64,000 nt of DNA from an uncultured Actinomycetes bacterium. GTDB taxonomy: Bacteria > Actinomycetota > Thermoleophilia > Gaiellales > JAICJC01. Position 1 is the first letter of the stretch. Each line of letters begins with the position of its first letter. Below the pieces are notes generated by a model that was not told where the DNA came from, did no database searches, and was given only the letters and a program-made list of their open reading frames with translations. The position numbers were made by a program, and so were the translations under genes. This document shows, one piece after another, positions 47,512-63,838 of this stretch. The stretch covers positions 906,518-970,517 of the forward strand of contig CAVSYD010000003.1 in NCBI GenBank assembly GCA_963732075.1, read 5' to 3'.

Positions 47512-48995
47512 TGCAGGTGGACGTTAGATGCGTGAGGCGTCGGTAGCAGCGTGCCCTCCATCGTGGCTTCCTCCGTCGCCTGCGCTGCACGCCGCCGCTG
47601 AAACTCCATCCCGATCAGGAATCCCACCGGCACGAAGAGATACCGGTTGTAGATGTCGTTCTGCACGACTCCTTCAATCAACCAAACCATGAAGGACAGC
47701 GTAAACGCGGAGGCGAGAATCCGTTGCGGCGCATCTATCGGATACGCGCGGCAAAGACGAATTCCGAGCGCAAGGGTGCCGAAGACGAACCAGAGGAACG
47801 CAACCAGGGCTGGAACCCCACCCGCTTGGAGCACCTGCAGATAAATGTCCGTCGCATACCGGACCACCGAGAAGCCGACGCCCGTGAGTGGGTGGGCGAC
47901 CGCGGAGTCCAGTGCCTGTCTGTAGAGGAAGAGACGGGTCGAGTTGGCTCCATTTTCTGCCGAGCTCAGACTGAAGAGGCGATTCACCGCCACCAGATTC
48001 GGGCTGGACGCGCTCGCACCCGCGAGCGCAAGCAACGGCACCAGTGCCGCCACCGCCAGAATCCCCACCCCCACACGGGTGCGCATCGGAGGGCTCACGA
48101 TCGGACATAGAATCACAACGACCACCGCCGCGAGCAGTGCCGCGCGTGAGCCCGAGATCATGATCGCTACCAGTGCGGCAACCAGCACGGAGCCGTAAAA
48201 GACTCGGGACCGCATCGTCTTAGCCAGCACTGTCACCTGGGCAATCGCGTACGGGATCACCATGGCCGCCACGATGCCAAGGTCATTCGGTTGGAGGGTC
48301 AGGCCGGTCTGCCGCCCAACGTACCCTCGGCCCGCGAAGAAGTGCCCGATGCCGGTGTTCAGTGTGTAGTCGAGCAGTGCGACCACGCCGTTGATCAGCA
48401 CGGAGGCCGACCACGCGGCACCTGCGACCGCGAGCCTTGCGGGAGAAGAACTGATCGCACCGACGAGAAGGGGCGTCAGTATGAGAGCCAACGCGAACTC
48501 GAGCGCTTTACCCAGATCGGAACTCACACCACCCACCGGGTCAGCAGTCGCGGCCGTGATCCCGGACGCCAGCAGGAGCACCCCGCTGAACACGAGGTAG
48601 GGCGGGGTGAGCGTGAGCCACCGACGCTCGACGACCGCGGCCATACCGAGGCATGCGGCGCTGAGCACAAAGAGGGCGTCGGCGACCTCCACACCTCCGT
48701 GTATGTGGACGGAGATCAGCGTTACCGCGACGAGACCGGCGAATCCAGAGGCAAGGCCAAACCGAAGCAGCGGAGAGTACGAAACGCAGTCATCCAACCT
48801 CCCGAGCCACGCGGCGAACCACATCAGCAAAAGCAGCCCGGCGAGCGCCGCCAAGCCGATGAGGACCGCTGAACGGGGCAGCGTCGCGGATACCAGGCCA
48901 ACGCCGCCGCCGGCGGCCAGCGCAATCATCAGCAGCCCAACCGACCGGGCCAACTGACCGCCGCGCACGCGAGTCCGGTTTGGAGCATGCACCAC
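47508..48995 (-). CDS. O-antigen polymerase/ligase-like (Wzy_C domain) polytopic membrane protein
   Basis: GTG start lies 3 nt after the upstream GT stop. About 10-12 TM helices, with the Wzy_C-like loop IMISGSRAALLAAVVVVI. The N-terminal 240 aa of ORF 47508..49724 is read-through antisense-frame sequence. Confidence 0.65.
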   Translation of the reverse strand: MVHAPNRTRVRGGQLARSVGLLMIALAAGGGVGLVSATLPRSAVLIGLAALAGLLLLMWFAAWLGRLDDCVSYSPLLRFGLASGFAGLVAVTLISVHIHGGVEVADALFVLSAACLGMAAVVERRWLTLTPPYLVFSGVLLLASGITAATADPVGGVSSDLGKALEFALALILTPLLVGAISSSPARLAVAGAAWSASVLINGVVALLDYTLNTGIGHFFAGRGYVGRQTGLTLQPNDLGIVAAMVIPYAIAQVTVLAKTMRSRVFYGSVLVAALVAIMISGSRAALLAAVVVVILCPIVSPPMRTRVGVGILAVAALVPLLALAGASASSPNLVAVNRLFSLSSAENGANSTRLFLYRQALDSAVAHPLTGVGFSVVRYATDIYLQVLQAGGVPALVAFLWFVFGTLALGIRLCRAYPIDAPQRILASAFTLSFMVWLIEGVVQNDIYNRYLFVPVGFLIGMEFQRRRAAQATEEATMEGTLLPTPHASNVHLQ

Positions 48996-48997
48996 GT

Positions 48998-50308
48998 TTA
49001 TCTCCCGGTGTTCCGAGTGGGGTCGACCTCGTGTGAGACGGGTGTTCGACCGCCGCTCACCGCAAGTGCCTGCTCGATCACCTGGCTGAACGCATCCGCG
49101 ATCCGATCGATATCGAACGTCGATTCGGCATAGGCCCGGCCGGCCGACCCCATTGCCTGGAGTTGGTTGCGGTCGCCTATGAGGGCTCCGGCGGTCTCGA
49201 GGAATGCAGGGCCGTCGTGCGGATCCACGACAACTCCGGATCCCGCCCGCTGGATGATCCGAGCTGCGAGATTCTCGGACGGGATCGCCCCAAGAATGGC
49301 GCGCCCCGCACAGTGGTAGCTGAGCACTTTCGAGGGCACCGAGTACTGCCCCGCATCGCTTTGCAGGATCGCAACCAGCACGTCGGCGCTGGCAAGCACG
49401 TCGGGGAGTTCGCTGTAGGGCTGGTAGGGCAGGAGAATCAGATTGTCCAGCCCATGCGCACGAGACTGTCCGGCGAGCCAGTTCGCGCCGCGGCCCTCCG
49501 AAACCACGACCACTCGCACATCCGGGTGTGCACGCATCGAGATCGCGAGGTCGCGGATCAACGCTGGATCGTGCTTCACCCCGAGCGTGCCGGCATAGAC
49601 GAAGTTCCGGGTCTGGGCCAGCCGATGGGCACGAGACCACGCGTTGTCGTGCGGCCGGAGCGGCGTCTCCGAGAGAGGGGCCCAATTCTCGATCACAGTG
49701 ATCCGCTCTGACGACACTGACCACGCCGCGAGTTGCGGCAGAAAATCCTCGGATATCGGGACGACCGCGGAGCTCTGGCGAAGGGAGGTCGCCTCAACTC
49801 GGCTGAGGACGAAGCCGGCGATCGCACTCACCGTGCGGGGCCGGCCTCGCGCGAGCGTGAGCTTCGTCCCGACGCTCCAGACATCCTGCTGCCAGAAGAT
49901 GAACGCACGCGGGAGTCTGGTCTTCCTCACCAGCAACCACTGACTCAGCAGCGGCGTGTTGCCCGACATCAGTACTTCCGTATTCTCGGCGGTCGCAATC
50001 TCGGACACGATTCGCGCGTACTGAACTTCATAGACCGCACGCTTGATCACCGAGTACTTGTTGAACGGCCGGCCGAGGTCGATCCCCTGGATGCGGAGCG
50101 TCGCCGGGTCATCGGCCGTGACCTCGATTCGGCCCTTTCCCTTGAGATCCGAGGCGCAATGGAGGTGAAGGACGTCGAAGCCCCTCTCGGCCAGGCGCCG
50201 GCTCAGCTGAATCTGAAAGGCGTGTCCGGCGAAGTCATGAACGACGATCCGGGTGCCCGTGGCGCTCGCGGTTCCGGTCCGCGCGCTGTCCGCGGTGATG
50301 TCACCCAC
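48998..50308 (-). CDS. glycosyltransferase family 4 (WcaI-like)
   Basis: Intact 436-aa ORF. N-terminus is IVVHDFAGHAFQIQLSRRLAERG. The C-terminal GT-B block is YSVPSKVLSYHCAGRAILG. Confidence 0.8.
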   Translation of the reverse strand: MGDITADSARTGTASATGTRIVVHDFAGHAFQIQLSRRLAERGFDVLHLHCASDLKGKGRIEVTADDPATLRIQGIDLGRPFNKYSVIKRAVYEVQYARIVSEIATAENTEVLMSGNTPLLSQWLLVRKTRLPRAFIFWQQDVWSVGTKLTLARGRPRTVSAIAGFVLSRVEATSLRQSSAVVPISEDFLPQLAAWSVSSERITVIENWAPLSETPLRPHDNAWSRAHRLAQTRNFVYAGTLGVKHDPALIRDLAISMRAHPDVRVVVVSEGRGANWLAGQSRAHGLDNLILLPYQPYSELPDVLASADVLVAILQSDAGQYSVPSKVLSYHCAGRAILGAIPSENLAARIIQRAGSGVVVDPHDGPAFLETAGALIGDRNQLQAMGSAGRAYAESTFDIDRIADAFSQVIEQALAVSGGRTPVSHEVDPTRNTGR

Positions 50309-50335
50309 CGGGCGTCTCCCGCTTCACCGCGCACG

Positions 50336-51970
50336 TCACGTAGGCCGAGGGGTTGTCGAACCTTGTTGGGTTGACCCTGTGCCGTTGGCCTCGACGGCAG
50401 CCACTCCATTCACAGATGCGCGCTCCGGGCCAGGGCTATAGCCATAGCTGCCATAGCCGTACCCGTCGCTTCCAGCGCCGACCCCGGCGAGCACGTACCC
50501 CAGCACCGGGCTACCGAGCGTGCAGAGGACGCGGTGAAGCTCCTGCAACGTGTCGCGCTCGGTGTTCTTGAGGTGGACGACCGGAATCACCCCACCTACA
50601 AGACGGCTCAGCGCGACCGAATCGACCACCGGGAGAAGCGGCGCGGAGTCGATGACGACAACGTCGGCTCGTGTGGAGAGTTCGCTCAGCAGATTACGCA
50701 GGCGGTCGCTCTCCATGAGTTCCGCGGGGTTCGGCGGCATCCCCCCAGCGGGGAGGAGGGTGAGCGTGCCCTGCGAGCCGCCCGGGGAACCGGGAATCGG
50801 GACGGGCACCAGGACGTCGTCGAGTGACACCGACCCGATCATCACGTCGGTGGCGCCTGGCGCGATCGGCACCTTGAAGAACGTGGACACGAACGGCCTT
50901 CGCAGGTCGAGGTCAAGCAGGATGACGCGTCTCTCGCTCAAGGCCAATGCGTAGGCGAGGTTGGCGCTGGTTGTCGACTTCCCCTCCTGCTCAACGGCGC
51001 TCGTCACCATCACGGTTCTCGCGTTAGCCTTGAGGTTGCTGAAGTCGAATCCGACCCTGAGCTTGCGATACGGTTCGGACTCGACGGCATCCCCATCGAT
51101 CATTGCGATGGTGTTGCCCGATCGAAGGGCCTTGGACGGGGCGGGGATTCGCGCGAGGAGCGGGATGCCGAGGGTGCGGCCAATCTCGCTCGTGGAGCGA
51201 ACCCGGGTGTCCAATGCCTCGCGGAGGAACGCTGCGATAACGCCGATGACGCACCCCAGAACGAAGCCCAGCAGCAGATTCTGGGGAACGTTCGGCTGTA
51301 CCTGATGCGCACCCGTTGCGGACGTCGAGACGGTGGTACCCGGATTGCTCTCCTGGGTCGCGATCAGGCTTTGGAGATTCGTGATCTTTCCAACCAGCTT
51401 GTTCAGCTGGGCGTTCACCGTTGACACCGACTGTCCGGCATTGTGGAGCTTGACGGCCTGCGCCTCGAGCCCGGCCTTCTCGTTCTGAAGCTTTCGAAGT
51501 GTGTTCGTCAGCCCGGCGGTGCCCACGGCGGTTTCGTATTTGACGAACGCCGCTGCGTACGCGTTGACGAGCGCCTCGGCGACCGCGGGTGACTTGCTTC
51601 GTACCGAGAATGTGAGGATGTTGTTGGTGGTGCTGGGCGTGATTGTCGTGACCCGTAGCGCGGTCACGCTGTCGACGCCCGGCAGGTGCGCGGCGGTCGC
51701 GGCGAGCGCCGCGACGGTGTCCGTATGGGCTACCTCGGCGAGATTCGCGACGATGCGCGCCTGCACATCGTTCGACTGCTGAGCGCCTGCGAGCTGCCCG
51801 ACCGAGGTGCTGACCAGCACCTGGGAGGACGCCTCGTAGACCTTGTGCTCACGAGTCGAGACGGCGAATGAGGCCGCGACGGACGCCAGAAGCACGACCA
51901 AGACGATCCACTTCCGCCGCCGGATGACCGCTAGATAATCGACCAGCGTCGCGTACCGCGGTGAACTCAT
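50336..51970 (-). CDS. polysaccharide co-polymerase / BY-kinase (Wzc-like: Wzz domain + CpsD-type tyrosine autokinase)
   Basis: - Two TM helices flank a coiled-coil periplasmic-type domain.
- Walker A-like block: SAVEQEGKSTTSANLA.
- Further kinase blocks: LLDLDLRRP and VVIDSAPLL.
- C-terminal Tyr cluster: DGYGYGSYGYS. Confidence 0.85.
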   Translation of the reverse strand: MSSPRYATLVDYLAVIRRRKWIVLVVLLASVAASFAVSTREHKVYEASSQVLVSTSVGQLAGAQQSNDVQARIVANLAEVAHTDTVAALAATAAHLPGVDSVTALRVTTITPSTTNNILTFSVRSKSPAVAEALVNAYAAAFVKYETAVGTAGLTNTLRKLQNEKAGLEAQAVKLHNAGQSVSTVNAQLNKLVGKITNLQSLIATQESNPGTTVSTSATGAHQVQPNVPQNLLLGFVLGCVIGVIAAFLREALDTRVRSTSEIGRTLGIPLLARIPAPSKALRSGNTIAMIDGDAVESEPYRKLRVGFDFSNLKANARTVMVTSAVEQEGKSTTSANLAYALALSERRVILLDLDLRRPFVSTFFKVPIAPGATDVMIGSVSLDDVLVPVPIPGSPGGSQGTLTLLPAGGMPPNPAELMESDRLRNLLSELSTRADVVVIDSAPLLPVVDSVALSRLVGGVIPVVHLKNTERDTLQELHRVLCTLGSPVLGYVLAGVGAGSDGYGYGSYGYSPGPERASVNGVAAVEANGTGSTQQGSTTPRPT

Positions 51971-52088
51971 CAGATATGCCTCTCTTGCCGTCTGGGACGA
52001 GTGCGCGGAGCGATTACCCCCAGGATGTTCCAGTGATACGTGCATGCGCGAGCATCGTCAAGGGCTGAAGAGCACGGCGGGTTTTTGC

Positions 52089-53975
52089 TCAGCGCGATCC
52101 TTCCCTTTCTGCGCGGCGTACCAGCCGGGAGTAGAGACGCAGTTCGCGCGACAGAGGGTTCAGAGTGGCGGCGGCGGTAAGAGCCCGTCCCTCGAGTCGC
52201 CCTTCAGAGGCCTGCGCAAGCCCGAACTGGAGCTTCCACTCGGCAGGGTCAACAGCCAACCCCCGTCGGAAAGCGTCACGAGCGTCCGCCTTGTGGCCCA
52301 TCCCGAGCGCCGCATAGCCCGCTGCGATCCACGGGTCGTATGACCATGGCATCCATCGGCGGGCCGATCTGGCCTCACTCGCCGCATTCGCCCAGTGACC
52401 CGCGTTGACATCGTGCTCGGCTGCTTCGAGGTGCTCCGCACCGATAGCGCCCATCGTGAGCGCCAGCGTTGCGGCGACGAGGAGCGCGCTCGCGATGAGC
52501 GTCACCGGCGCGCTTGTCTTCAGATCTCGTTGCTCGGCGCCGCGGTTCGCTACCACCAGACAGGCGGCCATCCCGACGCCGAGCAGTCCCACCGCCGGCA
52601 GTTGCCAATCCCAGTCGACGCCGGTGTGCACGACGAACATTGCAAACGCCGCAAGGCACGCCGGCACGAAAGGGCGCCTGCGCGCTGCGATCCCTTGTGC
52701 CCCCGCGAATCCGAACGCGAGGAGCAGGAGCGCCAGTCCCACAACCCCCGTCTCGGCGGCGGTTTCAAGATATGCGGAGTGCGCGAAGTCGCCCTCGAGT
52801 CCCGTGGTGCGGTGCAAGAGCCAGACTCTCGCGAATCCTCCGGCTCCGATGCCAACCACGGGGTGTGACGCAAACTCAGATGCTGCTAGTCGCCAGAGTT
52901 CAGGTCGGGCTTCGAGTGTGGTCGCCAGCAGCCTTCCCGGCTTTCCCGGCGCGCTGCCGGCGCCGCTTGCCGATAGCGTGAGCAGACAGATCGCACCGAC
53001 AGTTGCCATTGCGGCGACCGCGACGACCACTCGTCGCAAGACTTGGTCGGATCCACGCCATGAACGCGAGATCACCAGCGCGAACGGATTGAGGCAGAAA
53101 CGGATCAGAATCACAGCGAACGCGCACCCGAAGACCAGCGCGACCGACACGACGATCGCGGCGTGATGTGACCGCGAGTCGAGGGTGGTCGCGGTCAGAT
53201 GAGGATCCAGGATCGCTGCAACGACCGGAACCATCGCCGCCAGGGCACACAGCACAGCCGCCACGAGCACGCGGACACATTTGCGGTGTGCCACCGCGGC
53301 GACCGCCACGCCCAGAACCGTCACGGCGATCCCGCCTCGGCTCAGAGTGAGATACAACGCCAGTCCGAGAACGGGGGCGCTCGCGGCCGCGGCGATGCGC
53401 ACGCCGGGCCTCGACCCATCCAAAATGATGCCGATTGCGAGAATCAGTCCGATCCCCGCGATCATCGCCAGCCCGTTCCAATACCCGACGGGGGCGAAAA
53501 GGCGACCGGCGACCCCTGCCGTCTGGGCATATGAGCTGCCGGGTAGGAGGCGCACCCCAACTCCGAACGCTGCCACCGCCACGCAGCCCACCCAGGCCGC
53601 GCCAGCAAGGAACGCGACGGAGCGCCCTCTCGATCCGGCGATGACTGCCAGAGAGAGCAGTCCGTAGGTGCCGACACGGGCGGAATCCGGCACAGTCGCC
53701 GTCGCATCGGCCGACCACGAGAGTGAGGCGAACCCCCAGGCGGAGAGCCCTAGGAGCGCGAGCGGCAAAATGAGTGGACGGCCCCGCAAGCGCGCGGGGG
53801 CCTGCACGACGCCCCCGACCGAAACCACCGCGAGCGCAGCGCCGGCTAGCTCGTACGTGCTCGGCGCAACGCCTCCATTCTGGAAGGCGAGCAGAATGAA
53901 GCCTACGCCAAGTGCCGCTGGAAGCAGCAAATCTCGGTGGTATATCGAGAAAGATCTGCTGTATCGCGGTACCAT
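52089..53975 (-). CDS. O-antigen ligase-family (Wzy_C) membrane protein with C-terminal TPR-like domain
   Basis: Intact 628-aa polytopic ORF. Blocks are YLTLSRGGIAVTVLG and AHSAYLETAAETGVVG. The soluble tail carries TPR-like repeats (GYAALGMGHKADARDAFRRGLAVDP). Confidence 0.7.
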   Translation of the reverse strand: MVPRYSRSFSIYHRDLLLPAALGVGFILLAFQNGGVAPSTYELAGAALAVVSVGGVVQAPARLRGRPLILPLALLGLSAWGFASLSWSADATATVPDSARVGTYGLLSLAVIAGSRGRSVAFLAGAAWVGCVAVAAFGVGVRLLPGSSYAQTAGVAGRLFAPVGYWNGLAMIAGIGLILAIGIILDGSRPGVRIAAAASAPVLGLALYLTLSRGGIAVTVLGVAVAAVAHRKCVRVLVAAVLCALAAMVPVVAAILDPHLTATTLDSRSHHAAIVVSVALVFGCAFAVILIRFCLNPFALVISRSWRGSDQVLRRVVVAVAAMATVGAICLLTLSASGAGSAPGKPGRLLATTLEARPELWRLAASEFASHPVVGIGAGGFARVWLLHRTTGLEGDFAHSAYLETAAETGVVGLALLLLAFGFAGAQGIAARRRPFVPACLAAFAMFVVHTGVDWDWQLPAVGLLGVGMAACLVVANRGAEQRDLKTSAPVTLIASALLVAATLALTMGAIGAEHLEAAEHDVNAGHWANAASEARSARRWMPWSYDPWIAAGYAALGMGHKADARDAFRRGLAVDPAEWKLQFGLAQASEGRLEGRALTAAATLNPLSRELRLYSRLVRRAEREGSR

Positions 53976-55057: not shown

Positions 55058-55084
55058 GAGTCCAGGCAACCGCCTTCGGCGGCG

Positions 55085-56608
55085 CTACTCCGCGCCGGAG
55101 GATCCGGCGTAGGCGGCACGCCCAATCTGCCCTCGCTGGGGCAGTGCCCCGGCGATAGCCAAGCCAGCCACGAGGACAAGTCCGGCGACGGCCGAAACCA
55201 CGACGATCTCGGCGGCGGGGGTGTAGCTGGACGTCAGGATGGCCATTATGCCCGCGGTAACCCCGAAGGCCACCATCACCAAGGACACCTTCCCGGTTGC
55301 ACGGTCGAACGGTTGGATGCGGAGGTTCTTCCACACCTGCAGAAGGCGCAGTCCGTTGCTCAGGACCACGGCCAAGGCCCACGCTGCCCCCGCACCCACC
55401 ATTCCGTATTCCGGAATCAGAACGATGTTCAACGCGACGTTCACGACGACCACGAGTGCATTGATCCGGAAGGTCACGTCCGCACGGCCGATCATGGTGA
55501 TGACGTATCCACACGGCCCCGTGGCCGCATTGACCAACTGGGCAGCGGCAAGCATGGCGAGTGGGACTGCCGCCCGCGCATAGCTTTGTCCGTAGAAGAG
55601 CGTCAGGATCGGGGATGCGAGCAGGGCCACCAGGAGCAGAGGTGGAACGCCGAAGATGACGGCCAACCGGGTCGCGAAGGAGTACATCTTCCCGAGCTGG
55701 GCGATGTCCCCGGTCGTGTGCAAACGGCCGATCACCGGTTGGAAGGCAATGGCTACAGGCAGAACGAAGACCAGGCCGAGGGCGACCGTCCGGGTGGCGA
55801 CCGAATAGGCCGCGACGTCTTGGGGTGGACGCCAAAGACCGAGGAGCAGTGTGTCTGCCCAGAGAGTGCCCGCACCCGCAAGGACCGTCCCCCACTGAAA
55901 TGCCGAGAAGCGTACCAACGCACGCTTGTCGAGTGCCGCCGAGGTGGCATCCGCGGTGAGGAAACGCCGGGTGACGAACGCCGCTGCGCAGAGCGTGACC
56001 ACGCTCGTCGCGGTCGACGCCAGTGCAGCCCCTGCCGCACTCGCGCCCATGAGCAGGACGAGCCACACAAGTCCGAGACGGAGTGTCCCATCCAGTATCT
56101 GATCGACGTAGACATACGATCGCATCCGCCCGGTGCCACGGCTCGCTCCGATCAGCACAGATTCGACCACAATGAACGGCAGGCCGACCGCCATCACCCG
56201 CAACACGTCAGCCAGAGCAGGAGCACCGAACCATCCCGCGACCCACTGTGCTCCGAGTATCGTCGCGATCGCGACTGCCGTCGATGCCAGACCCGAGAGC
56301 TTCACCGAATATCGGATCGAGGACGCGGCCGCCGCGCGATCGCCGGCGGCGAGATGCATGGCTACGTAACGGACCGCCGTTACATCCAGACCCAGGGTGG
56401 CGACCACCGAAAGCAACTTGATCGCGGCGAATCCTTCGAAGAACACACCCGCTTGCCTCTGAGGCAGCCAGTGAGCGAGCGCGAGCACGAGGCAAAACTG
56501 TGTCAGGCTCGAAACGCCGAGGCCGGCGAAGTTGAACATGGATCTGTGGGCGAGAACGCGCTTCTCCGCCGCCAGTTCAGCGGGTGCGGCGCTACCAGGA
56601 CTGGTCAT
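55085..56608 (-). CDS. Wzx-type oligosaccharide flippase (MOP/polysaccharide biosynthesis protein family)
   Basis: Start taken at MTSPGSAAP. About 12-14 TM helices. The N-terminus FNFAGLGVSSLTQFCLVLALAHWL is typical of this family. The start overlaps the upstream sulfotransferase stop by 17 nt. Confidence 0.75.
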   Translation of the reverse strand: MTSPGSAAPAELAAEKRVLAHRSMFNFAGLGVSSLTQFCLVLALAHWLPQRQAGVFFEGFAAIKLLSVVATLGLDVTAVRYVAMHLAAGDRAAAASSIRYSVKLSGLASTAVAIATILGAQWVAGWFGAPALADVLRVMAVGLPFIVVESVLIGASRGTGRMRSYVYVDQILDGTLRLGLVWLVLLMGASAAGAALASTATSVVTLCAAAFVTRRFLTADATSAALDKRALVRFSAFQWGTVLAGAGTLWADTLLLGLWRPPQDVAAYSVATRTVALGLVFVLPVAIAFQPVIGRLHTTGDIAQLGKMYSFATRLAVIFGVPPLLLVALLASPILTLFYGQSYARAAVPLAMLAAAQLVNAATGPCGYVITMIGRADVTFRINALVVVVNVALNIVLIPEYGMVGAGAAWALAVVLSNGLRLLQVWKNLRIQPFDRATGKVSLVMVAFGVTAGIMAILTSSYTPAAEIVVVSAVAGLVLVAGLAIAGALPQRGQIGRAAYAGSSGAE

Positions 56609-57467
56609 GTTCGTATCCCATGTCGACAAGCAGTTGACCGCCAAGGCGTTTGAAAAGGTCGGTGAGTGCCGGGGTGAAGTAGTCGCGCCAGCCGCCCGAT
56701 ACGCCGCGTCGGAAGGTTGTGCTCGATGGTGTCCAAACCGCATCGGCGACGCGTTCCGCGCCGGCTCGGTCGAGCGGTCGATCCACGAATGCTGCAATCT
56801 GGGAGACGGTGTCGATCTGGATCTCCCGGTCGCCTCCACCCCTCACTCCGATCAGGTCCTCGAAGCGCACAACCCTGACGCCGGGGGCCGCCCCCCACGG
56901 CAGAAACGCTCCCACCCGCTGGTCAAGTGACAGCAACTCGGGGGAATCTTCTGTCGCGGGCAATCCCGTGATCGACGCGCGGATTCTATCCTCATCCGAG
57001 CCGAGCGCGCGGAAGCGCTGATGGAGATGGTGTTCCTTGAGCTTGCTGGCGTAGAACGCGAAGGACACCGCGACGTCCCGAGGGTCGCGGACAAGGAGCA
57101 TCATGCGGAATTCGAGATCGCCGAAGGCCGACTCGAAGCCGGGCCACGCGGGGATGTGGGCGGTCGCGTACTGCCCGTTTCTGACGCGGTCCATGTGGGC
57201 CCGAGCGATGCGCAAAGCGTCTGCGGACTCGTCCGCCGTGAGCGGGGCCCCGCTCACGTGATGCAGCGTCTCCGGCTGGACGTGCACGCCAGCGTATGCC
57301 ATTTTGGGCAGCCGCGAGAGGACGCCCACCGCGAGGTGCGTGCCGGCCTTGGGTACGCTGTTCACGATGACCCGAGGAGCGGGTCGCCACCTGACCACCG
57401 ACCCCATCCATGTGGCGTACGCCACCCTGGACACAGAACGCGTCGTGACCCTCATGCCGCCGATCAA
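56592..57467 (-). CDS. sulfotransferase-domain protein (Sulfotransfer_1-like)
   Basis: Intact 291-aa ORF. Blocks are VNSVPKAGTHL (5'-PSB), LLVRDPRDVAVSFAFY (3'-PB) and FRRGVSGGWRDYFT. The start overlaps the GT4 stop (ATGA). Confidence 0.8.
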   Translation of the reverse strand: MIGGMRVTTRSVSRVAYATWMGSVVRWRPAPRVIVNSVPKAGTHLAVGVLSRLPKMAYAGVHVQPETLHHVSGAPLTADESADALRIARAHMDRVRNGQYATAHIPAWPGFESAFGDLEFRMMLLVRDPRDVAVSFAFYASKLKEHHLHQRFRALGSDEDRIRASITGLPATEDSPELLSLDQRVGAFLPWGAAPGVRVVRFEDLIGVRGGGDREIQIDTVSQIAAFVDRPLDRAGAERVADAVWTPSSTTFRRGVSGGWRDYFTPALTDLFKRLGGQLLVDMGYEHDQSW

Positions 57468-58672
57468 GCCGCGGATCCTCTGGCCGGTTTGCGCCGTTGG
57501 GTGGCATCGCTGCCTCGTTGCATTGCTTCAGCGTACACCGACTCGATTTGGTCGACATGATGACCCAGCGAGAGTTCGTTGGCGGTGCTCCCCCACCCGG
57601 CCGCGGAGAGGGTTGCCCATGTATCGTCGTCGTCGAGTAGCAGTCGGGTTGCCGCCACCATGCTCCGCAAGTCGGGCAAGACCAGCCGACCGCCACCCGC
57701 CACCCGCACATAATCGGCCAGTCCGCCCACATCGAACGCAACCACCGGTGTGCCGACTGCGAAGGCCTCAAGGGCGACCAACCCCGCGGGCTCGGGCCAC
57801 ACCGAAGGGATCACCGTGGCCACCGCTCGTGACAAGACTTCCTTCACTGTCTCCGGAGCAACCCACCCGTAGACCTCCAGGTTCGGCACCGACCGGGCTT
57901 CGGAGTCGAGCCATCCACGCAACTCACCATCGCCGAAGACGCTCACCCGGACATCGGGCAGAGCCCGTGCGAGGTCGGGAAGCACCCGCGCGCCCTTCGC
58001 CTCCGTGAGTCGCCCGACAAAGACGATCCCACCCCGCTCCTCACGGGGGGGCGCGGCTTGCTGGGTGACTCCGTGCCGGACGACCTCAGCGTCGATCCCA
58101 AAGCCCGAGTACGTGCCGGCGATCGCAGCGGAGATCGCGATCCATGAATCGACTCGTGGAATGTGGGCATGACGCTTCACCTGAAAGAGCGCCGTGTTAA
58201 GAGCCCGAAAGGCGACGTCGCTGTCGAGGCGATCGACGGCGCCGCCTGACGCATCCGTCGGGCTCGCCGACACAAATTCATAGTCATGAATGGTTTGCAC
58301 GACGGGAATGTGTCTCCTTCCGGCCATCACGGCGGGCGCGACGGAGAGCTGGGGGTAGAGCTTGTTCAGATGTACGATGTCCGGTCGAAATGATGCGCAC
58401 AAAACGGAGAGCGAGCGAGCGGCCGAGCGGTTCCAAAACGCCTCGCACACCACTCGAGCCCTGGTGTCGAACGCAAGGTTGCCACGCGTGGCGTGACTGA
58501 CCCGCAGCGGGATGAACTGGCCAGATGTCTCGAGGTTCTCTGCGTGGTCGGTCGACAGCCACTGAACATCATGACCGCGGCTTCTCAGGCCGCGGGTGAG
58601 TTCAAGGCAGTATCGATCGGCGCCGCCGGTCACGCGTGCGAACTTATTGACGATCAGGATGCGCATGTACAA
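57464..58672 (-). CDS. glycosyltransferase family 4 (GT-B, group 1)
   Basis: Intact 402-aa ORF. N-terminus is RILIVNKFARVTGGADRY. The C-terminal block is PSVWPEPAGLVALEAFAVGTPVVAFDVGGL. Confidence 0.85.
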   Translation of the reverse strand: MYMRILIVNKFARVTGGADRYCLELTRGLRSRGHDVQWLSTDHAENLETSGQFIPLRVSHATRGNLAFDTRARVVCEAFWNRSAARSLSVLCASFRPDIVHLNKLYPQLSVAPAVMAGRRHIPVVQTIHDYEFVSASPTDASGGAVDRLDSDVAFRALNTALFQVKRHAHIPRVDSWIAISAAIAGTYSGFGIDAEVVRHGVTQQAAPPREERGGIVFVGRLTEAKGARVLPDLARALPDVRVSVFGDGELRGWLDSEARSVPNLEVYGWVAPETVKEVLSRAVATVIPSVWPEPAGLVALEAFAVGTPVVAFDVGGLADYVRVAGGGRLVLPDLRSMVAATRLLLDDDDTWATLSAAGWGSTANELSLGHHVDQIESVYAEAMQRGSDATQRRKPARGSAA

Positions 58673-58779: not shown

Positions 58780-59793
58780 TCAAGTAGAACCGCCATTCCT
58801 GCAACCGTCAAGGCTCGGCTCACGGGCGCTTGCATCACCGACCAGCCGCCGAGATGTCGACCGGAGCGCGGAGAGAACTGATGGTGTCGAGAGGCGGAAG
58901 TCGAACCCCGCCGGGGAAACTGCGTCGTTATACACCCACGCTCGAATCCTGGGATGCTGCTCGATCCACCGCGCTGCGGAGACCAGCCACCAGCGCTGGC
59001 GCATCGCGTCGCCGGGATCGATCGTGGATCCGCTCTCCGACACCATAAGCCGCTTGTGCGTCGTCACTCCCCACGTGTAGAACGGCGTGAAGATCTGCCG
59101 AAACCCATCCCACCTCGTATCCGGGTATCGGTTGTACCCGTCTGCGGCGACCCATTGCACATAGCGGCCTCCAGGGTAGAACGTCTGTGCTCTGCCGGTG
59201 GCGAATCCTGCGGCGGTGGCAGACCACACAAACTGCGCGTTGGTTGCGTGCTCCGCATGAAAGATCCCGACAATCCTACGCCAGGCGAGTTTGAACTCGT
59301 GCGGCGTCCCGATGTAGTGGCTGCCCGGCACGCCGAGCTTCTGGTTCATCTCGAAGCCGAACCGGATAAAAACCGGCTTGTGCAGCGACCTCACGCCGAG
59401 TGCCACCGACCGGATCACGCCATCCTCGAGTCCGCTGGCGATCGCACGCGCGGTTGTAGTGCCGACCGCCGACCATGAGATCATGGGTATACGGCCCGCC
59501 TCGACATCCTTTCGCTCCTCAACCAGTGGAATCCGATCCCAGGCGCGGTAGTGCGGGTCTATCGAAAGTGTGCATCCAAGCCGTCGATCCAAATTCTCGA
59601 AAAAGGCGAGTTGGCCACCGCCGTTCGGGGCCGGCACCCACGCACCCATCAGGATGCCCGAACCGAAACGCGGTAGTGGAGCCGTGACCGGACTTTGGCT
59701 CGAGCCACACGCGGTGACGGAGCCGATCATCGCTGTCGTGTAGATGAGGATGAAGCACCTTCGCCCGTGTGACAGCGCCGCCGGACGATGCAC
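58780..59793 (-). CDS. glycoside hydrolase family 26-like lipoprotein
   Basis: Start chosen at a GTG that gives VHRPAALSHGRRCFILIYTTAMIGSVTAC (lipobox). It has an acid/base-like block (VFIRFGFEMNQ) and a nucleophile-like block (RLMVSESGS). The upstream part of ORF 58780..60132 is read-through. Confidence 0.5.
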   Translation of the reverse strand: MHRPAALSHGRRCFILIYTTAMIGSVTACGSSQSPVTAPLPRFGSGILMGAWVPAPNGGGQLAFFENLDRRLGCTLSIDPHYRAWDRIPLVEERKDVEAGRIPMISWSAVGTTTARAIASGLEDGVIRSVALGVRSLHKPVFIRFGFEMNQKLGVPGSHYIGTPHEFKLAWRRIVGIFHAEHATNAQFVWSATAAGFATGRAQTFYPGGRYVQWVAADGYNRYPDTRWDGFRQIFTPFYTWGVTTHKRLMVSESGSTIDPGDAMRQRWWLVSAARWIEQHPRIRAWVYNDAVSPAGFDFRLSTPSVLSALRSTSRRLVGDASAREPSLDGCRNGGST

Positions 59794-59852
59794 GGCCGCC
59801 AACAACTTCCCGGCGGAGCGTCGAGACCATCTCTCCTCCTCGAATGCGGCGG

Positions 59853-62800
59853 TCAAGCAGGGCCGGAATCGGAGAGGCTTGGCAGACTCCGCGTCAACGC
59901 GTCGGACAGATGTGACACGAGGGGTTCGTACATCATATCCCGATGATCCCCATCCACACCTATCACCGACAGCTGGCCAGTGATCAGCCGGGACCATCCC
60001 CTGACCGGATCGACCGGGGAACCCAGGCGGCGGGCCGCCTTGAAGTATGTGGCGTTCCCGTCGTAGGGCCAGGGCTGATACGTCGATGTCGCCCGCCGGC
60101 CGATCTGCCCCAACACCCCGATGTTCGACCATGCTGCGGATTGCCCCCGAACGGTGGCGTGCGCCCGACGAACCGCGGCAAACCGGCGAAGAGACCGGCG
60201 CACGACTCGCCGAGCCCTCCCCCGAAGGTCAACGACGAGCCAGCCTGGCACATTCCTCAGTGACGCCATCACGTCGGCGCGGCTGACGAAGTGCGACGGC
60301 AGTCCGGCGTCTATCAGTCCAAGAAACGCGACGCATTCCCCGTCTTCGACCAAGCGGCGAGCGAGTTCGAGAACGACGAGACCACCGAACGAGTAGCCTG
60401 CCAGAGCGTACGGACCGTTCGGCTGGGCCTCCCGGATCTGACTCAACTGATACTCGGCCATGTCCTCGACACGTCGGTCCGGCTGTTCCCCGTCAGCCAA
60501 ACCGCGCGACCGCAGTCCATACACACGGCGTTCCGTCGACATGTGTGCGGCCAGCGGCGCGAGCACGAGCACATCGCCGGCAACACCGGGCACGAGGAAG
60601 AGCGGCTGTTCGGGGCTGCCTTCCTTGAGCAAAACGAGTGACGATCGGACCGCTCCCGGCTCTTCACGGACGATCTCGGCGAGGGCGGCGATCGTGGGCG
60701 CCGTGATCAGCGTCGAGAGCGGCAGGCCGCGGCCCAAACGGTCATAGATCGCCTGAAACAGCGGCACCGCCAAGAGCGAGGTCCCGCCGATCTCGAAGAA
60801 ATTGTCGGAGCGGTCAATGGGAGAGACACCGAGCAACTGCTCCCAGATCGCGGTAAGTTCGCCCTCGATCGAAGGTGTGGGGTCGCTCGCCACCGGCGTC
60901 GGCCCGCTCCGGCCTTCCGCGGCAACCAGGAGCCGGATCGCCTCGAGGCACTCAGGGTTACGGAGCGCATCGACATTCGTGAGCCGTTCCCCGTTGAGGG
61001 TGTCGCGAGCGGCGCGCTCGGACCGTTTGGCGTTGTGAGTTGAGGGGAGTTCGGGCACTTGGGCAATGATCGATGGCACGTGCGCAGATGATGCCTCCCG
61101 AGCAAGAAGCGCACGGATACGCGCTTTGAGAGGTGGATCGAGGTCACATTGGTCGCGCATGACAAGGAGCAGCACGATCCTCGAGTCGCCCGCAGCAGTG
61201 CCGGTGCGCTGCTCAACGGCCATCGCCTCATCGATTTCGGGAATCCGCTGAAGGACGCGGTAGATCTCAGCCGGCCCGATCCGCATGCCGCGGACGTTCA
61301 AGACGCCATCGGATCGCCCCAGTACTCGCGCCGATCCGTCGGGTGTGAGTTCGATCAGGTCGCCGTGTGTCCATACCCCTGGGTTGGCTGCGAAGTACGC
61401 ATCATGAAAGCGGCCTCCCTCAGCGTCACCGTACAGACCCAGCGGGCGGGATGGGAAGGGGCTGCAGCACACCAACTCACCCACGGGCGAGTCCGCGGGC
61501 GCATTCGGTGAATGCAGCGTCTGGACATCGAGACCCAGACTGCGACACTGACTCTCGCCGCGGTAAACCGGAAGGTTCGGGTTGCCCAGCACGAAGCAGC
61601 CCACGATGTCAGTGCCACCGGAGATCGACTGAACCGGAAGCGAGCCAACATTACGCTCCACCCAATCGTATTGAGCGTCGTTGAGAACCGACCCGGTCGT
61701 GAGCACAGCTCGTAACGATTCGAGCGGCAACTCCTGCCGCGGGACGTAGCCACTGTCCTCGCACAGCCGCAGGTAGGGCGGGCTGGTGCCGAATACTGTC
61801 ACCCTCTCGGCGGCAACGATGCGCCATAGTGTCCCAGGGTCTGCGACGGGGCCATCGTAGACTACGATCTCGGCGCCGCAGGCGAGAGCGGACAGCTGCC
61901 AGTTCCACATCATCCATGCGGCGCTGGTTTGAAAAAACAGTTTGTCGCCGGGCCGAAGATCGCCGTGCAGGCGATGTTCCTTTATATGTTCAAGGAGCGT
62001 GCCGCCTGCCCCGTGGATGATGCACTTCGGCGGACCGGTCGTGCCTGACGAAAAAAGAATGAACAGCGGATGGTTGAACGGGAACCGGGTCCACGAGTGC
62101 TCGACGTTGGCGACGTGAGCATTCGCAGCAACGTCGGCCAAGCGGTGCACCGGGCATCCCAGTCCAGGCGGGACGACGCCGTCGTCGAGGATCACAACCG
62201 CTCGCAGCGAGGAGAGCCCGCGCACGACCGCGACCAGTCGCTCTCCGGCGGAAACCGACGACGTGTGCGTCTCGCCACCGAGAGTGACGATCAGGAGAGC
62301 CGGTTCGAGTTGCCCGAACCGGCTCAAGATCGCGTCTGCTCCCATCTCGGGTGCCGTGCTCGAAAAGGTGGCACCGACTGTGGCGCTCGCCAGCCCCGCA
62401 ATCAGGGCTTCGGCGCAGTTCGAGATAACGCTGACGATGCGGTCGCCGGGTTCTACCCCAAGCTCGACGAGCGAACCCGCGAGCGAGAGGACTCGATCGC
62501 GTAGCTCTCCCCGCGTGATTCGCTCGTTGGCGCCGGACGCATGCACCGCGGTCACGGCGGAGCGCTTCGCGTCTTCGGCCAAGTCAACACGCAGCAGATT
62601 CTCGGCGTAATTCAGATGAAGATTGGGGAAGAAGCGAGCTAGTTCGACGCTATCGCCGGCGCACACCGGTTGGTCGACCCCCTCACGGAGGATGTCCGAC
62701 CACGCGAGAAACAACCGCCAGAACAGTTCGGTACTCGTCGACCGAGAACCGGTAGAGAGCCTCCTCACCCGAGATCGATCGGCCCAACTCCGCCTCGCAG

Positions 62801-62913
62801 AACTGTCTGAACGCCGTCAGTTGAGAGGCCGCGACGACCTCCGGCGCTGGGCGAAATACGACGTCTCGGTCACGAGGCGGAGCGTCGGGTCCGGGTTCGA
62901 CCTTCGTCGCCAT
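59853..62913 (-). CDS. tri-domain enzyme: acetoacetyl-CoA-synthetase-like adenylation domain + carrier (thiolation) domain + thioesterase domain; one apparent frameshift near 62730
   Basis: - The N-terminus MATKVEP..LTAFRQFCE..YRFSVDE lies in ORF 62683..63000.
- AACS-type blocks: ELFWRLF, FILFSSGTTGPPKCIIH, AAWMMWNW, SGGTDI and THGDLIE..GRSDGVLNVRGMRIGPAEIY.
- Carrier motif: FFEIGGTSLLAV.
- Thioesterase motifs: PLFLVPGVAGDV and GYSFGG.
- The ATG shares one nucleotide with the PPTase stop. Confidence 0.85.
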
Positions 62914-63677
62914 CAGCCCGGGCCGCTGAAAGCGTGCATCGAGACGGCAGCCGCGGACAGCCTTTGCCGACTCGCGACCGCTGCGACGTATCCGGGCCAA
63001 GGCTTCAGCGACCGAAGCGTCCAGGCACCCGGATCGTCATCGGTCAAATTCAGCATGGAGGGGTAGGGGTTCTCGTCGACGGAGACGCAGAACCGGTCGA
63101 ACGGCAGTCCCAAACCCTGGCCAACCGCCTTGGCGTACGCCTCCTTGCGCGTCCAGCAGTTGAAGAACGCCTGGATTTTCGCGTCGCCCTGCTTCTCGCG
63201 GATCGCAAAAGCTTCCGCGGGCGCGAGGAACCGCTCGGCAATGCGATCGACATCTCCGATTGGCCACACCCGTTCGAGGTCGACACCCACGGGTACGGAT
63301 CGGCTGACGACAATCACGCACCGATCACCTGATCGCGAAAGGTTGAATTGGAGATCACCCTGTCCCGCGGTCAGGGACGGTTTGCCGAACTGCCCGCGTT
63401 CGAGACTGATGTCCACCGGCCGGCAACTCAGATATCCGGCCAGCACGGCTCGTGCGGCGACCTGTGACCCGTGCTTGAGCGTGCGCACCCGTTCCCGGGA
63501 GAGCGCCACGCCCGCCGCCACTCCCTCGTCTACATGTGCAGCGATCTCGACCCGCCAGACGTGGATCTCGCCGCGACTCAGCGCCCACGATCCTGGCGCT
63601 GGAAGGTACTCATCGCCACTGTCGATCGCGGTTTCAGCGAGATCAGTACCGAGCGCGCCAAGAATCGTCATCAGCAC
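62913..63677 (-). CDS. 4'-phosphopantetheinyl transferase, Sfp type
   Basis: Intact 254-aa ORF with blocks GQFGKPSL, FNLSRSGD, VGVDLE and WTRKEAYAKAVGQG. Confidence 0.85.
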   Translation of the reverse strand: MLMTILGALGTDLAETAIDSGDEYLPAPGSWALSRGEIHVWRVEIAAHVDEGVAAGVALSRERVRTLKHGSQVAARAVLAGYLSCRPVDISLERGQFGKPSLTAGQGDLQFNLSRSGDRCVIVVSRSVPVGVDLERVWPIGDVDRIAERFLAPAEAFAIREKQGDAKIQAFFNCWTRKEAYAKAVGQGLGLPFDRFCVSVDENPYPSMLNLTDDDPGAWTLRSLKPWPGYVAAVASRQRLSAAAVSMHAFSGPG

Positions 63678-63820: not shown

Positions 63821-63838
63821 GCAGACACCTGGCTGCTC

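Follow-up and report, generated by a model that had tools for sequence, protein, structure and literature searches.

The locus described here raises the question of why a protein built around an adenylation (A) domain of the acetoacetyl-CoA synthetase (AACS) family, fused to a carrier and a thioesterase (TE) and preceded by the gene of a phosphopantetheinyl transferase (PPTase), should stand at the head of a set of polysaccharide genes. A preliminary description of the window, that is, of the whole stretch of 64,000 nucleotides that was analysed, had proposed that the in-cis carrier, and not CoA, receives the acyl group, by a logic resembling the D-alanylation of teichoic acids. The reading that we favor, to which we would give a probability of about one half, is that the two genes form a self-contained module of acyl activation and hand-over, which in this lineage would serve a Wzx/Wzy glycan. 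The features on which the discussion turns are collected in Table 1; related loci are referred to by labels such as L001.

Table 1. Features of the module and of the glycan locus, with positions in the window.
Feature	Positions	Strand	Evidence and remarks
Sfp/HetI-type 4'-phosphopantetheinyl transferase (PPTase), 254 aa	62913..63677	minus	Pfam ACPS, AASDHPPT_N
TGATG stop/start overlap, PPTase to A-T-TE gene	62911..62915	minus	read directly in sequence
AACS-type A-PCP-TE gene, 1019 aa with extra base removed	59853..62913	minus	start ATG 62913, stop 59853
Adenylation domain, acetoacetyl-CoA-synthetase family, residues about 17-661	60930..62865	minus	NF002937, TIGR01217, 4WD1
Single extra G, coding strand	62729..62729	minus	DNA alignment with L001
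Carrier (PCP) domain; attachment Ser712 in GGTS at 60777-60779	60672..60860	minus	Pfam PP-binding 7.3e-12
Type-I thioesterase domain; GYSFGG Ser841 at 60390-60392	59901..60608	minus	Pfam Thioesterase PF00975 8.4e-27
GH26-like putative lipoprotein	58780..59802	minus	weak Pfam Glyco_hydro_26, 21.5 bits vs 20.2 cut-off
GT4 glycosyltransferase	57464..58672	minus	Glycos_transf_1 2.3e-21, Glyco_transf_4 2e-17
Sulfotransferase, overlaps GT4 stop by 4 nt	56592..57467	minus	Sulfotransfer_1 1e-10
Wzx-type (MOP family) flippase	55085..56839	minus	Polysacc_synt 5e-16, MatE
Rest of glycan locus	46612..53975	minus	Pfam/ORF scan
Wzy_C protein	52089-53975	minus	
Wzz/P-loop kinase	50336-52045	minus	
GT4, second	48998-50308	minus	
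Second Wzy_C protein	47508-49724	minus	
Second sulfotransferase	46612-47511	minus	

Domains and ancestry of the large protein

The profile searches confirm the three domains that had been proposed, since Pfam recognizes AMP-binding and AMP-binding_C, PP-binding and Thioesterase in the large protein, and all the hallmarks listed beforehand were located in it: WMMWNW (residues 333-338), SGGTDI (431-436), the A8 stretch GRSDGVLNVRGMRIG (532-546), GGTS (709-712) and the GxSxG motif in the form GYSFG (839-843). The order is A, carrier and TE, with a carrier serine and a catalytic triad predicted to be Ser841, Asp868 and His990, as in an NRPS-like A-T-TE protein. Across 58 family members the catalytic Lys629 of the A domain is conserved, G710 and S712 of the carrier and G839 and S841 of the thioesterase are invariant, and D868 and H990 are at least 90% conserved. 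The carrier-thioesterase portion is NRPS-like (EntF 5ja1, 5e-40; AB3403 4zxh, 6e-38), and the thioesterase part matches the EntF PCP-TE structure 3tej (5e-23).

The A domain has another affinity. It passes the cut-offs of two NCBIfam AACS models (NF002937, 666 bits against 639; TIGR01217, 593.9 against 520.9), and its closest solved structure is the AACS of Streptomyces lividans (SlAacS, 4WD1; E = 6e-122, residues 19-662), with which it aligns end to end and shares WMMWN, TTGS and SGGTD. An NRPS-type adenylation domain was considered and rejected, as TIGR01733 scores 100 bits where its cut-off stands at 317, and AACS and Acs give the best matches. The positions that correspond, by alignment only, to the acyl-pocket residues Val310, Thr311, Val386 and Trp414 of Acs are M334, M335, T406 and G432; when 58 fused proteins were compared with 41 free-standing AACS, M334, M335 and G432 were invariant in both sets, and T406 was invariant in the fused proteins and present in 37 of the 41 free ones. 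The AACS character claimed for the domain is thus upheld, and these conserved pocket positions suggest what the acyl substrate may be.

The fused proteins depart from AACS in the part that holds CoA. In Acs, Arg191 and Arg584 bind the CoA phosphates (PMC10455477). The loop DGYxYxGK, equivalent to Acs D187-R194, the segment that holds Arg191 and Arg194, is conserved in 33-37 of the 41 free AACS and is degenerate or deleted in the fused clade; position 604, equivalent to Arg584, carries R or K in 39 of the 41 and A, G, V or S in all 58 fused proteins, while Arg526 and Gly524 still have their equivalents. To this are added about 30 clade-specific substitutions (for example, with the fused clade named first and AACS second, PFPSRP/PMPSMP, WTHGD/WRHGD and RIGPAE/R[IM]GTAE), and a difference in length, a free-standing AACS, which releases acetoacetyl-CoA, having about 650 aa and the window protein, with its carrier and thioesterase, 1019. 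In neighbour joining all 41 free AACS fall apart from all 116 carrier-clade sequences, the fused clade being separate from AACS. The loss of the nucleotide loop and of the Arg584 equivalent, with the pocket kept, agrees with a change of acyl acceptor in which CoA gave way to a carrier protein; the ligase descends from acetoacetyl-CoA synthetase and appears to load its own carrier arm in place of CoA.

The adjoining gene agrees with this. Its product has the Pfam matches expected for an Sfp-type PPTase (ACPS, 4.9e-19, plus AASDHPPT_N), as had been claimed, and its top NCBIfam model is HetI (1e-30, under the model cut-off); it shares 78% identity with the PPTase of L001 and 59% with that of L170. 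The PPTase gene and the large gene meet in a TGATG junction, found where it had been reported, in which stop and start codons overlap and by which the two genes are translationally coupled; overlaps of 1-4 bases, or abutting genes, recur in L001, L002, L169, L170 and L172. The enzyme for priming the carrier is thus at hand, and the fusion, the PPTase partner and the loss of CoA-binding residues lend indirect support to an ANL ligase that may load a carrier.

It could be argued that the protein is an ordinary acetoacetyl-CoA synthetase and the carrier-thioesterase part an irrelevant or regulatory appendage, since the AACS models score above their cut-offs and both NCBI and JGI call the homologues acetoacetate--CoA ligase. 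However, the CoA-phosphate-binding elements have been lost across the whole clade, the carrier serine and the thioesterase triad are kept under purifying selection, a dedicated PPTase recurs, and the phylogenetic split from the free AACS is clean, so this reading is very improbable. As for the parking of the acyl group on the in-cis carrier, the clade-wide loss of CoA-binding residues fits it and the carrier and thioesterase are intact; the loading itself would be a property predicted from these residues.

State of the large gene

As written, the large gene consists of two open reading frames, 62683-62913 (76 aa) and 59853-62768 (971 aa), because of the extra G of Table 1, which shifts the frame after codon 61. 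It lies outside any homopolymer, the window reading TACC[G]AACTG where L001, 92% identical, reads TACC-AACTT, and the homologues read VDEYQLFW or VDEYRLFW across the point. The frameshift that had been suspected near 62730 is therefore present in the sequence, whether by mutation or by an error of assembly. If the insertion were real, only a 76-aa N-terminal fragment would be made, or at best a truncated protein from GTG 62768; its position outside a homopolymer run would agree with this, as would the replacement by Ala of Gly628, beside the catalytic Lys. Yet there is no second lesion within 3 kb, dN/dS is about 0.15 on either side of the shift, and the nearest relative reads through it. Against L169 and L170 the gene gives dN/dS of 0.16-0.18, and when it is split by domain against L169 every segment lies at 0.14-0.24, the 62 codons that precede the frameshift among them; at highly conserved columns the window protein deviates in 3 of 252, the family median being 7. 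Furthermore, related assemblies are prone to indels, L001 having split GT4, sulfotransferase, Wzy and TE frames, so that a consensus error in the window is plausible. The large gene is thus broken by one extra base, otherwise fully conserved, and under purifying selection, and we regard a dead gene in the source genome as unlikely.

The glycan locus and the neighbourhoods of the family

The GH26-like lipoprotein, GT4, sulfotransferase and Wzx that had been described downstream on the same strand were all found by Pfam, the first of them weakly; this protein has a lipobox-like VTAC after a hydrophobic stretch, and its start is uncertain. The true start of Wzx is probably near 56608 (the Wzx gene call of L001 has 507 aa). 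The locus reaches about 46.6 kb, and with Wzx, two Wzy_C proteins, Wzz with a P-loop kinase, two GT4 and two sulfotransferases it has the composition of a Wzx/Wzy-dependent locus, whose polysaccharide is probably sulfated; no initiating phosphoglycosyl transferase was seen among the ORFs scanned. The spacing fits an operon, as the genes overlap or stand no more than about 110 nt apart, and a terminator scan gave chance level. The module sits at its head, co-directional and tightly spaced.

The architecture, taken at first to be unusual, is common. Of the top 120 database matches all but one are A-PCP-TE (the exception, P0004, is a 738-aa protein without a PCP or TE call), the clade motifs were matched in at least 600 metagenome stretches, and the gene occurs in 13 Burkholderiaceae replicons; its hosts include soil Actinomycetota-like MAGs and cultured Cupriavidus, Caballeronia, Paraburkholderia and Geodermatophilus. 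With homologues annotated everywhere as "acetoacetate--CoA ligase", the family is widespread, uncharacterised and mis-annotated.

In a census of two genes on each side of 44 non-redundant loci, glycosyltransferases accounted for 2 of 146 nearest-neighbour ORFs; farther out, at ranks 3-6, they were 3 of 150. No Wzx or Wzy family was among the recurrent neighbours; direct glycan adjacency holds for about 10% of the loci. Many are orphan genes, those in complete or large contigs among them, and the sole recurrent partner is an adjoining PPTase (10 of 32 non-redundant loci, in varied orientations), which is also found in L169-L172. There is no family-wide tie to glycan loci. If the gene usually lay away from glycan genes, its co-location here might be coincidental; at family level it does largely lie away from them, though not in the window's own subclade.

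There, the window, L001 and L169 share gene order, a GH26-like gene following the A-T-TE gene in both relatives, and in L170 (71% identity) the PPTase and the A-T-TE gene head a different glycan gene set, with a Wzy of 29% identity and an unrelated sulfotransferase. The subclade thus retains the module in front of Wzy/sulfotransferase clusters that differ from one another, and outside this subclade (L001, L169, L170) the glycan link is kept only in a few others: L172 (53% identity), where a cluster of GT4, ligase, ACP, carbamoyltransferase and Acetyltransf_6 has its ligase and ACP as a pair of their own, next to the PPTase and A-T-TE genes; L157, with a Wzz gene 0.7 kb away; and Burkholderia sp. 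RPE67, where a MviN flippase and a glycosyltransferase adjoin the gene. Between the window and L001 the identity is 96-97% in the glycan genes; in the PPTase and the greater part of the A-T-TE gene it falls to 80-90%, and the switch lies near 60300. From this mosaic it follows that module and glycan genes have had partly separate histories, the module being like the conserved flank of a mobile glycan cassette.

These same data could be explained by an independent module that makes or processes a small molecule, after the manner of an NRPS-like A-T-TE synthase, that merely borders a hypervariable glycan locus, and whose thioesterase would dimerise, cyclise, oligomerise or esterify a C4 acyl unit. 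The breakpoint within the 3' end of the A-T-TE gene, the retention of the module in L170 with the glycan genes replaced, and the dominance of orphan or PPTase-only contexts in the family all favor it, as do a Paraburkholderia piptadeniae gene that adjoins an NRPS and that of C. necator NH9, beside an integrase and a transposase. It has to contend, however, with the co-directional, tight glycan arrangement of four contigs at 71-92% identity, with the further glycan contexts of L172, L157 and RPE67, with sister A-clade architectures lying inside glycan loci with MBOAT/SGNH or GT4/Wzz partners, and with the neighbour census, in which the recurrent neighbours of the A-T-TE gene include none of the tailoring or export genes that characterise small-molecule clusters. 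We therefore hold it to be doubtful, and less probable than a module that serves the glycan.

Known systems and the proposed acyl route

The serving of a glycan finds a parallel in the Dlt system (DltA/DltC/DltB/DltD), in which an ANL ligase loads a phosphopantetheinyl carrier and a small acyl group is donated to an envelope polymer. This analogy, already drawn in the preliminary description, received unexpected independent support: in a sister A-only subclade (L150, L158, L110), cassettes of SGNH (DltD-like), MBOAT (DltB-like), a carrier of roughly 90 aa and A lie inside glycan loci, beside PMT_2, polysaccharide deacetylase and Wzy. Sister clades also carry A-PCP-GNAT fusions, and L145 has the arrangement GT4, A-T-X, Wzz; the sister clades thus point to acyl transfer onto envelope glycans. 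The window differs in having its carrier in cis and a cytoplasmic thioesterase for off-loading. No MBOAT homologue turned up in the window by tblastn with the L150 seed, nor among the annotated genes of the locus; such seed searches, of limited sensitivity, gave no homologue of the Acyl_transf_3 or Acetyltransf_6 seeds in the window either, and no locus ORF scanned matched an SGNH family. MBOAT, SGNH and a discrete small carrier are partners that only the sister A-only subclade has. As the ligase is of the AACS type and not of the DltA type, the acyl group would not be D-alanine.

Three other systems share parts of this logic. (i) The NRPS-like single-module A-T-TE proteins, among which we take bacterial RalA and the fungal quinone or furanone synthetases to belong, have the same A-PCP-TE order, stand-alone occurrence and dependence on an Sfp-type PPTase; the window's A domain, however, is not NRPS-type, and it is predicted to take a short aliphatic beta-keto acid in place of an aryl alpha-keto acid. 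(ii) In Pks13 the thioesterase domain hands the mycolyl chain to trehalose, which sets a precedent for a type-I thioesterase that is fed by a carrier and off-loads onto a sugar hydroxyl; the TE region gives a partial match to the NCBIfam Pks13 model (3.3e-18, 65 bits against a cut-off of 2100), but the window has no PKS context, and a transferase activity in it is a hypothesis only. (iii) TIGR03098 and its partners, the acyl-CoA ligase and acyl carrier protein set of exosortase-A (PEP-CTERM) EPS loci, also combine an ANL ligase and a carrier in exopolysaccharide loci, and the ligase and ACP of L172 are a pair of this kind; the window protein, which matches the model weakly at 57 bits against a cut-off of 592, is a ligase of another family and carries a fused PCP-TE.

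If we accept the preferred reading, the PPTase would turn the carrier of the protein encoded downstream into the holo form, and the A domain would adenylate acetoacetate or a closely similar C4 acid with a beta-oxo or beta-hydroxy group, which would be thioesterified onto the pantetheine arm of its own carrier and not onto free CoA. The Ser-Asp-His thioesterase, acting hypothetically as a transferase rather than as a hydrolase or cyclase, would then take the acyl group and hand it to a nucleophile. In this lineage the acceptor would most likely be a hydroxyl of the lipid-linked repeat unit or of a precursor, at the cytoplasmic face, and this glycan acceptor is the weakest step of the scheme. 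The product would be an acetoacetyl- or 3-hydroxybutanoyl-type ester decoration on the polysaccharide. As a chemical precedent, esters of 3-hydroxybutanoyl occur on the EPS of Rhizobium leguminosarum (PMC11598398).

In summary, given the glycan neighbours of the window's subclade and the orphan loci of the family at large, glycan acylation is plausible at this locus, unproven and not a family-wide rule, and the acceptor of the acyl group probably differs between lineages.

The PPTase and ligase-carrier-thioesterase genes

The minus-strand series opens, as the preliminary description had proposed, with genes for a 4′-phosphopantetheinyl transferase (PPTase) and for a protein joining an adenylation (A) domain of the acetoacetyl-CoA synthetase (AACS) type to a carrier (PCP) and a thioesterase (TE), called here A-T-TE or A-PCP-TE; ORF calling, Pfam and NCBIfam recovered both genes, their TGATG junction, the three domains and every motif quoted there. 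The top NCBIfam model of the PPTase is HetI, at a score under that model's cut-off. In the A-T-TE protein the profile search suggested at that stage (Pfam, NCBIfam) found the AACS-type A domain (AMP-binding and AMP-binding_C), PP-binding and Thioesterase, the acetoacetate--CoA ligase models of NCBIfam being passed above their curated cut-offs (666 vs 639 bits and 594 vs 521 bits). The nearest solved structure is Streptomyces lividans AACS 4WD1 (E = 6e-122, residues 19-662), and in the same kind of comparison the PCP-TE region is similar to EntF and other NRPS termini. The predicted catalytic residues are all present (PCP Ser712; TE Ser841, Asp868 and His990; Lys629).

Features of the window and of related loci (L numbers: loci or contigs of homologues)
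Feature	Coordinates	Strand	Remarks
PPTase, Sfp/HetI type, 254 aa	62913-63677	-	Pfam ACPS 4.9e-19 + AASDHPPT_N
TGATG overlap	62915-62911	-	PPTase TGA / A-T-TE ATG; from sequence
A-T-TE gene, ORF of 76 aa	62683-62913	-	
A-T-TE gene, ORF of 971 aa	59853-62768	-	stop at 59853
Strong AGGAGG with ATG 4 nt on	59828-59840	-	ATG at 59830
ORF of 103 aa	59519-59830		starts at ATG 59830
GH26-like gene, candidate start	59802 or later		TTG
ORF of 299 aa	54158-55057	+	between Wzx and Wzy
Far end of glycan locus	43434-47511		GH114-family domain protein (881 aa, +) and second sulfotransferase (Sulfotransfer_3)
A-PCP-X genes	L104:8540-11764; L124:7337-11734; L167:2316-5504		also in L092, L136, L145
A-only cassettes	L150:5721-10576; L158:1942-6819; L110:641-5542		
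L172 cluster	3365-14409		co-directional

The A-T-TE gene is read in the window as two ORFs, and DNA alignment with the closest relative, L001 (protein identity 92%), places an extra G at 62729 (window TACC[G]AACTG, L001 TACC-AACTT); homologues continue uninterrupted across this point as VDEYQLFW or VDEYRLFW, and without the extra G the protein has 1019 aa. The dN/dS of the gene is 0.16-0.18 against L169 (78% identity) and L170 (71%), and by domain, against L169, 0.14-0.24 per segment, a range that also holds for the 62 codons ahead of the frameshift; at highly conserved family columns the protein deviates in 3 of 252, the family median being 7. The extra G reflects an error in the consensus or else a mutation of very recent date; programmed frameshifting was ruled out, a slippery motif being absent and the homologues being in frame. 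A GC-frame plot for further frameshifts in the window, insensitive at this GC3 bias, left even 62729 unflagged. In L001 (13859 bases) the reading frames are broken, with the GT4 gene in three pieces, the sulfotransferase in two and Wzy in three, and the C-terminus of its TE runs into the GH26 frame. These breaks look like assembly indel errors, and because they are so many among the neighbour genes, assemblies of this lineage would seem to be indel-prone.

Probable substrate and thiol acceptor of the A domain

The residues of 58 fused (A-T-TE) proteins were compared with those of 41 free-standing AACS from the genome scan. By alignment, the acyl-pocket positions V310, T311, V386 and W414 of the reference enzyme Acs become M334, M335, T406 and G432, and this comparison, already called for in the preliminary description, finds the pocket kept: neither set varies at M334, M335 or G432, and T406, constant among the fused proteins, occurs in 37/41 free AACS. 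Such constancy argues for a substrate of the same kind as that of AACS, a small beta-keto acid.

At the CoA side the two sets part. The loop DGYxYxGK (D187...R191...R194 of Acs), conserved in 33-37 of the 41 free AACS, is degenerate or deleted in the fused clade, and position 604, the equivalent of Acs Arg584, is R or K in 39/41 free AACS, whereas each of the 58 fused proteins has A, G, V or S there. [quoted passage not shown] The Gly524 and Arg526 equivalents and the catalytic Lys are kept, and the other clade-specific changes include PFPSRP, WTHGD, RIGPAE and about 25 more. Neighbour joining puts 41/41 free AACS on one side and, on the other, all 116 sequences of the carrier clade (the fused proteins and their sister forms). 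The loss of the loop and of the Arg584 equivalent, together with this split, is what would be expected if the thiol acceptor had changed from CoA to protein-bound pantetheine, and this change we infer for the fused clade.

Among known systems, the window protein passes both NCBIfam cut-offs for AACS, but it is without the CoA-binding features and is not free-standing; it shares the domain organization of NRPS-like A-T-TE enzymes, but its A domain is not of the NRPS type; and it is similar in principle to the Dlt system, although among the locus ORFs scanned DltB and DltD are lacking. It has been classed as a variant combining an NRPS-like A-T-TE organization with a Dlt-like logic.

Spread, neighbourhoods and sister forms of the fused proteins

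The A-PCP-TE fusion is not rare. The best 120 database matches (50-92% identity), with one exception (P0004, 738 aa, without a PCP or TE call), are about 1000 aa long and contain both PP-binding and Thioesterase, and the named ones carry the label acetoacetyl-CoA synthetase. Motifs specific to the clade, taken from a 62-residue segment, matched at least 600 metagenome stretches, with 303 confirmed among the matches listed. An earlier scan of a genome collection had used a full-length alignment and the pattern F[ST]SGTTGxPK, and because this is generic the matches listed were mostly free-standing AACS; two tri-domain loci were gained among them. The gene occurs in Geodermatophilus sp. DSM 45219 and also in Paraburkholderia piptadeniae. 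Full-length copies lie on 13 plasmid or chromid records of Cupriavidus, Caballeronia, Burkholderia and Paraburkholderia. The searchable literature covered describes neither an AACS-type A-T-TE protein nor the pairing of an MBOAT with an AACS-type ligase.

In RefSeq three tri-domain proteins (L173, of C. necator NH9 pENH92; L175; L176) are called acetoacetate--CoA ligase and are given the GO term 'isopentenyl diphosphate biosynthetic process, mevalonate pathway', which is probably a propagated mis-annotation; the NH9 gene adjoins an integrase and an ISL3 transposase. An apparent PPTase-A-T-TE fusion in Geodermatophilus (L006) was rejected, as the PPTase lies in another frame and the length of the ORF comes from extension on its upstream side.

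In the window, the genes that follow A-T-TE on the same strand are, in the order already described, those of a putative lipoprotein (weakly GH26-like by Pfam), a GT4, a sulfotransferase and Wzx; neighbours in this putative operon overlap or are at most about 110 nt apart. Beyond one plus-strand ORF come Wzy, Wzz/kinase, GT4 again, a Wzy_C protein and a sulfotransferase, these last two each the second of its kind, to about 46.6 kb; the presence of two Wzy_C proteins raises the possibility of several polymers, or of a complex sulfated one. That ORF, of 299 aa, is 96% identical in L001 and is without a Pfam or NCBIfam match, a conserved unknown within the locus. Just past the A-T-TE stop, the ATG behind a strong AGGAGG does not share the frame of the GH26-like ORF. 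Homologues of MBOAT, Acyl_transf_3 and Acetyltransf_6 seed proteins were not found in the window by a search of limited sensitivity.

The neighbourhoods were studied in 64 non-redundant carrier-clade loci, L169-L172 and four annotated Burkholderiaceae replicons, with ORFs in high-GC loci picked by a GC1 > GC2 filter and six-frame HMM search; ranking by length and GC3 alone had picked shadow ORFs on the antisense strand and passed over PPTases already known, and was dropped. In the ±2-gene Pfam census of 44 non-redundant A-T-TE loci the synteny of one lineage dominates (Rhodanese + Lactamase_B, DUF2630, Sacchrp_dh), and ACPS is the sole functionally suggestive recurrent family: a PPTase, upstream, downstream or divergent, adjoins 10 of the 32 loci with both flanks (six-frame HMM). 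Plain orphan genes are frequent in long contigs and complete replicons. One soil lineage (L086, L117, L128, L132, L161, L163 and others) has an orphan A-T-TE with constant flanks, namely a divergent saccharopine-dehydrogenase-like gene with DUF2630 and a convergent metallo-beta-lactamase-rhodanese fusion.

It is here that the main rival explanation must be weighed, that of an autonomous small-molecule module which merely flanks a variable glycan cassette. GT families make up 2/146 ORFs at ±2 genes of the 44 loci and 3/150 at ranks 3-6, and Wzx or Wzy families do not recur within ±2 genes, so that placement beside glycan genes does not hold as a general rule: by this measure the tri-domain gene, across the family, usually lies apart from them, the outcome that the preliminary description had itself named as counting against its reading. 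The gene order of the window recurs in L001 and L169, and in L170 the PPTase and A-T-TE genes, abutting and co-directional, precede a different glycan gene set (Wzy 29% identical to that of the window, sulfotransferase unrelated). The pair is kept in L002 and L171 (57% identity), the glycan adjacency being gone and the glycan genes of L002 lying about 8-10 kb away. Other glycan neighbours are a Wzz gene 0.7 kb downstream in L157; an MviN-type flippase, a lipolytic protein and a GT in Burkholderia sp. RPE67; and the cluster of L172 (53% identity), with AsnB, GT4, ligase, ACP, carbamoyltransferase, PPTase, A-T-TE, Acetyltransf_6, GT4 and GT2. The L172 cluster, flanked by AsnB-like and GT4/GT2 genes, also includes a luciferase-like monooxygenase; the separate ligase there is a second AMP-binding protein, standing alone, and the carrier has 83 aa. 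Direct glycan adjacency was judged to occur at about 10% of loci, above chance against a crude background estimate and far from being the rule. Between window and L001, DNA identity is 96-97% over the glycan genes (50003-60295) and 80-90% over the PPTase and most of A-T-TE (59896-63888), with dS of 0.08 for Wzx vs 0.40 for the PPTase; the switch near 60300, inside the TE-coding part, suggests a recombination boundary, and module and glycan genes would have partly different histories. The family has thus been classed as widespread, uncharacterized and systematically mis-annotated, with a facultative and lineage-specific link to surface glycans.

Two further architectures form monophyletic groups inside the carrier clade (neighbour joining). 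In A-PCP-X, about 300 aa (about 650 in L124) replace the TE, with weak GNAT (Acetyltransf_9) matches in three of seven representatives, and the gene of L145 lies between GT4 and Wzz. In the A-only form, the ligase closes a conserved cassette in three independent metagenome contigs (L150, L158, L110): a protein of about 380 aa (SGNH-like in L158), an MBOAT, a PP-binding carrier of about 90 aa with the motif LDSLG, and the AACS-type ligase; in L158 the cassette is followed by LMWPc, PMT_2, a polysaccharide deacetylase and Wzy. By analogy, this cassette would be Dlt logic with an AACS-type ligase, giving independent support to the Dlt comparison made in the preliminary description, and off-loading across the clade would generally seem to be acyl transfer.

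A possible route for short acyl groups

The PPTase would prime the PCP of the A-T-TE protein, whose A domain would adenylate acetoacetate, or a similar C4 acid with a beta-oxo or beta-hydroxy group, and load the acyl onto its own carrier; the TE would then hand it on. On the cytoplasmic side, the lipid-linked repeat unit of the probably sulfated Wzx/Wzy glycan is the nearest plausible acceptor. Of the earlier idea of an acyl group parked on a carrier within a glycan locus, carrier loading agrees with the lost CoA-binding residues, while the glycan link is confined to some lineages. The chemistry is reasonably supported as far as loading; the glycan as acceptor is the weak step. A Wzx/Wzy exopolysaccharide bearing 3-hydroxybutanoyl esters is that of Rhizobium leguminosarum (PMC11598398).

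More broadly, and tentatively (with a probability of roughly 0.3), the AACS branch in which carriers replace CoA could be a modular route by which C4 beta-oxo- or beta-hydroxy-acyl groups (acetoacetyl, 3-hydroxybutanoyl) reach envelope glycans. Its interchangeable off-loading devices would be: (i) the fused TE of the window form, which would work on the lipid-linked repeat unit from the cytoplasmic side; (ii) a fused GNAT; (iii) and an MBOAT/SGNH pair like that of Dlt, working with a separate carrier.

The A-T-TE clade would be a clear-cut case, provided by nature, of an ANL enzyme swapping CoA for a carrier as thiol acceptor, by identifiable changes (Arg191 loop and Arg584 equivalent lost; PFPSRP, WTHGD and RIGPAE gained), and its clade-specific residues give a simple rule to tell A-T-TE proteins from true AACS. 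The many public proteins of this type that bear the label "acetoacetate--CoA ligase" probably make no CoA thioester. Together with its GNAT and MBOAT/SGNH sister forms, the module points to a carrier-protein-fed acylation of polysaccharides with short chains outside the Dlt paradigm; were the C4-acyl route true, Dlt-type logic would reach well past D-alanylation in Firmicutes, and a donor pathway would be named for the short acyl decorations of Wzx/Wzy polysaccharides.
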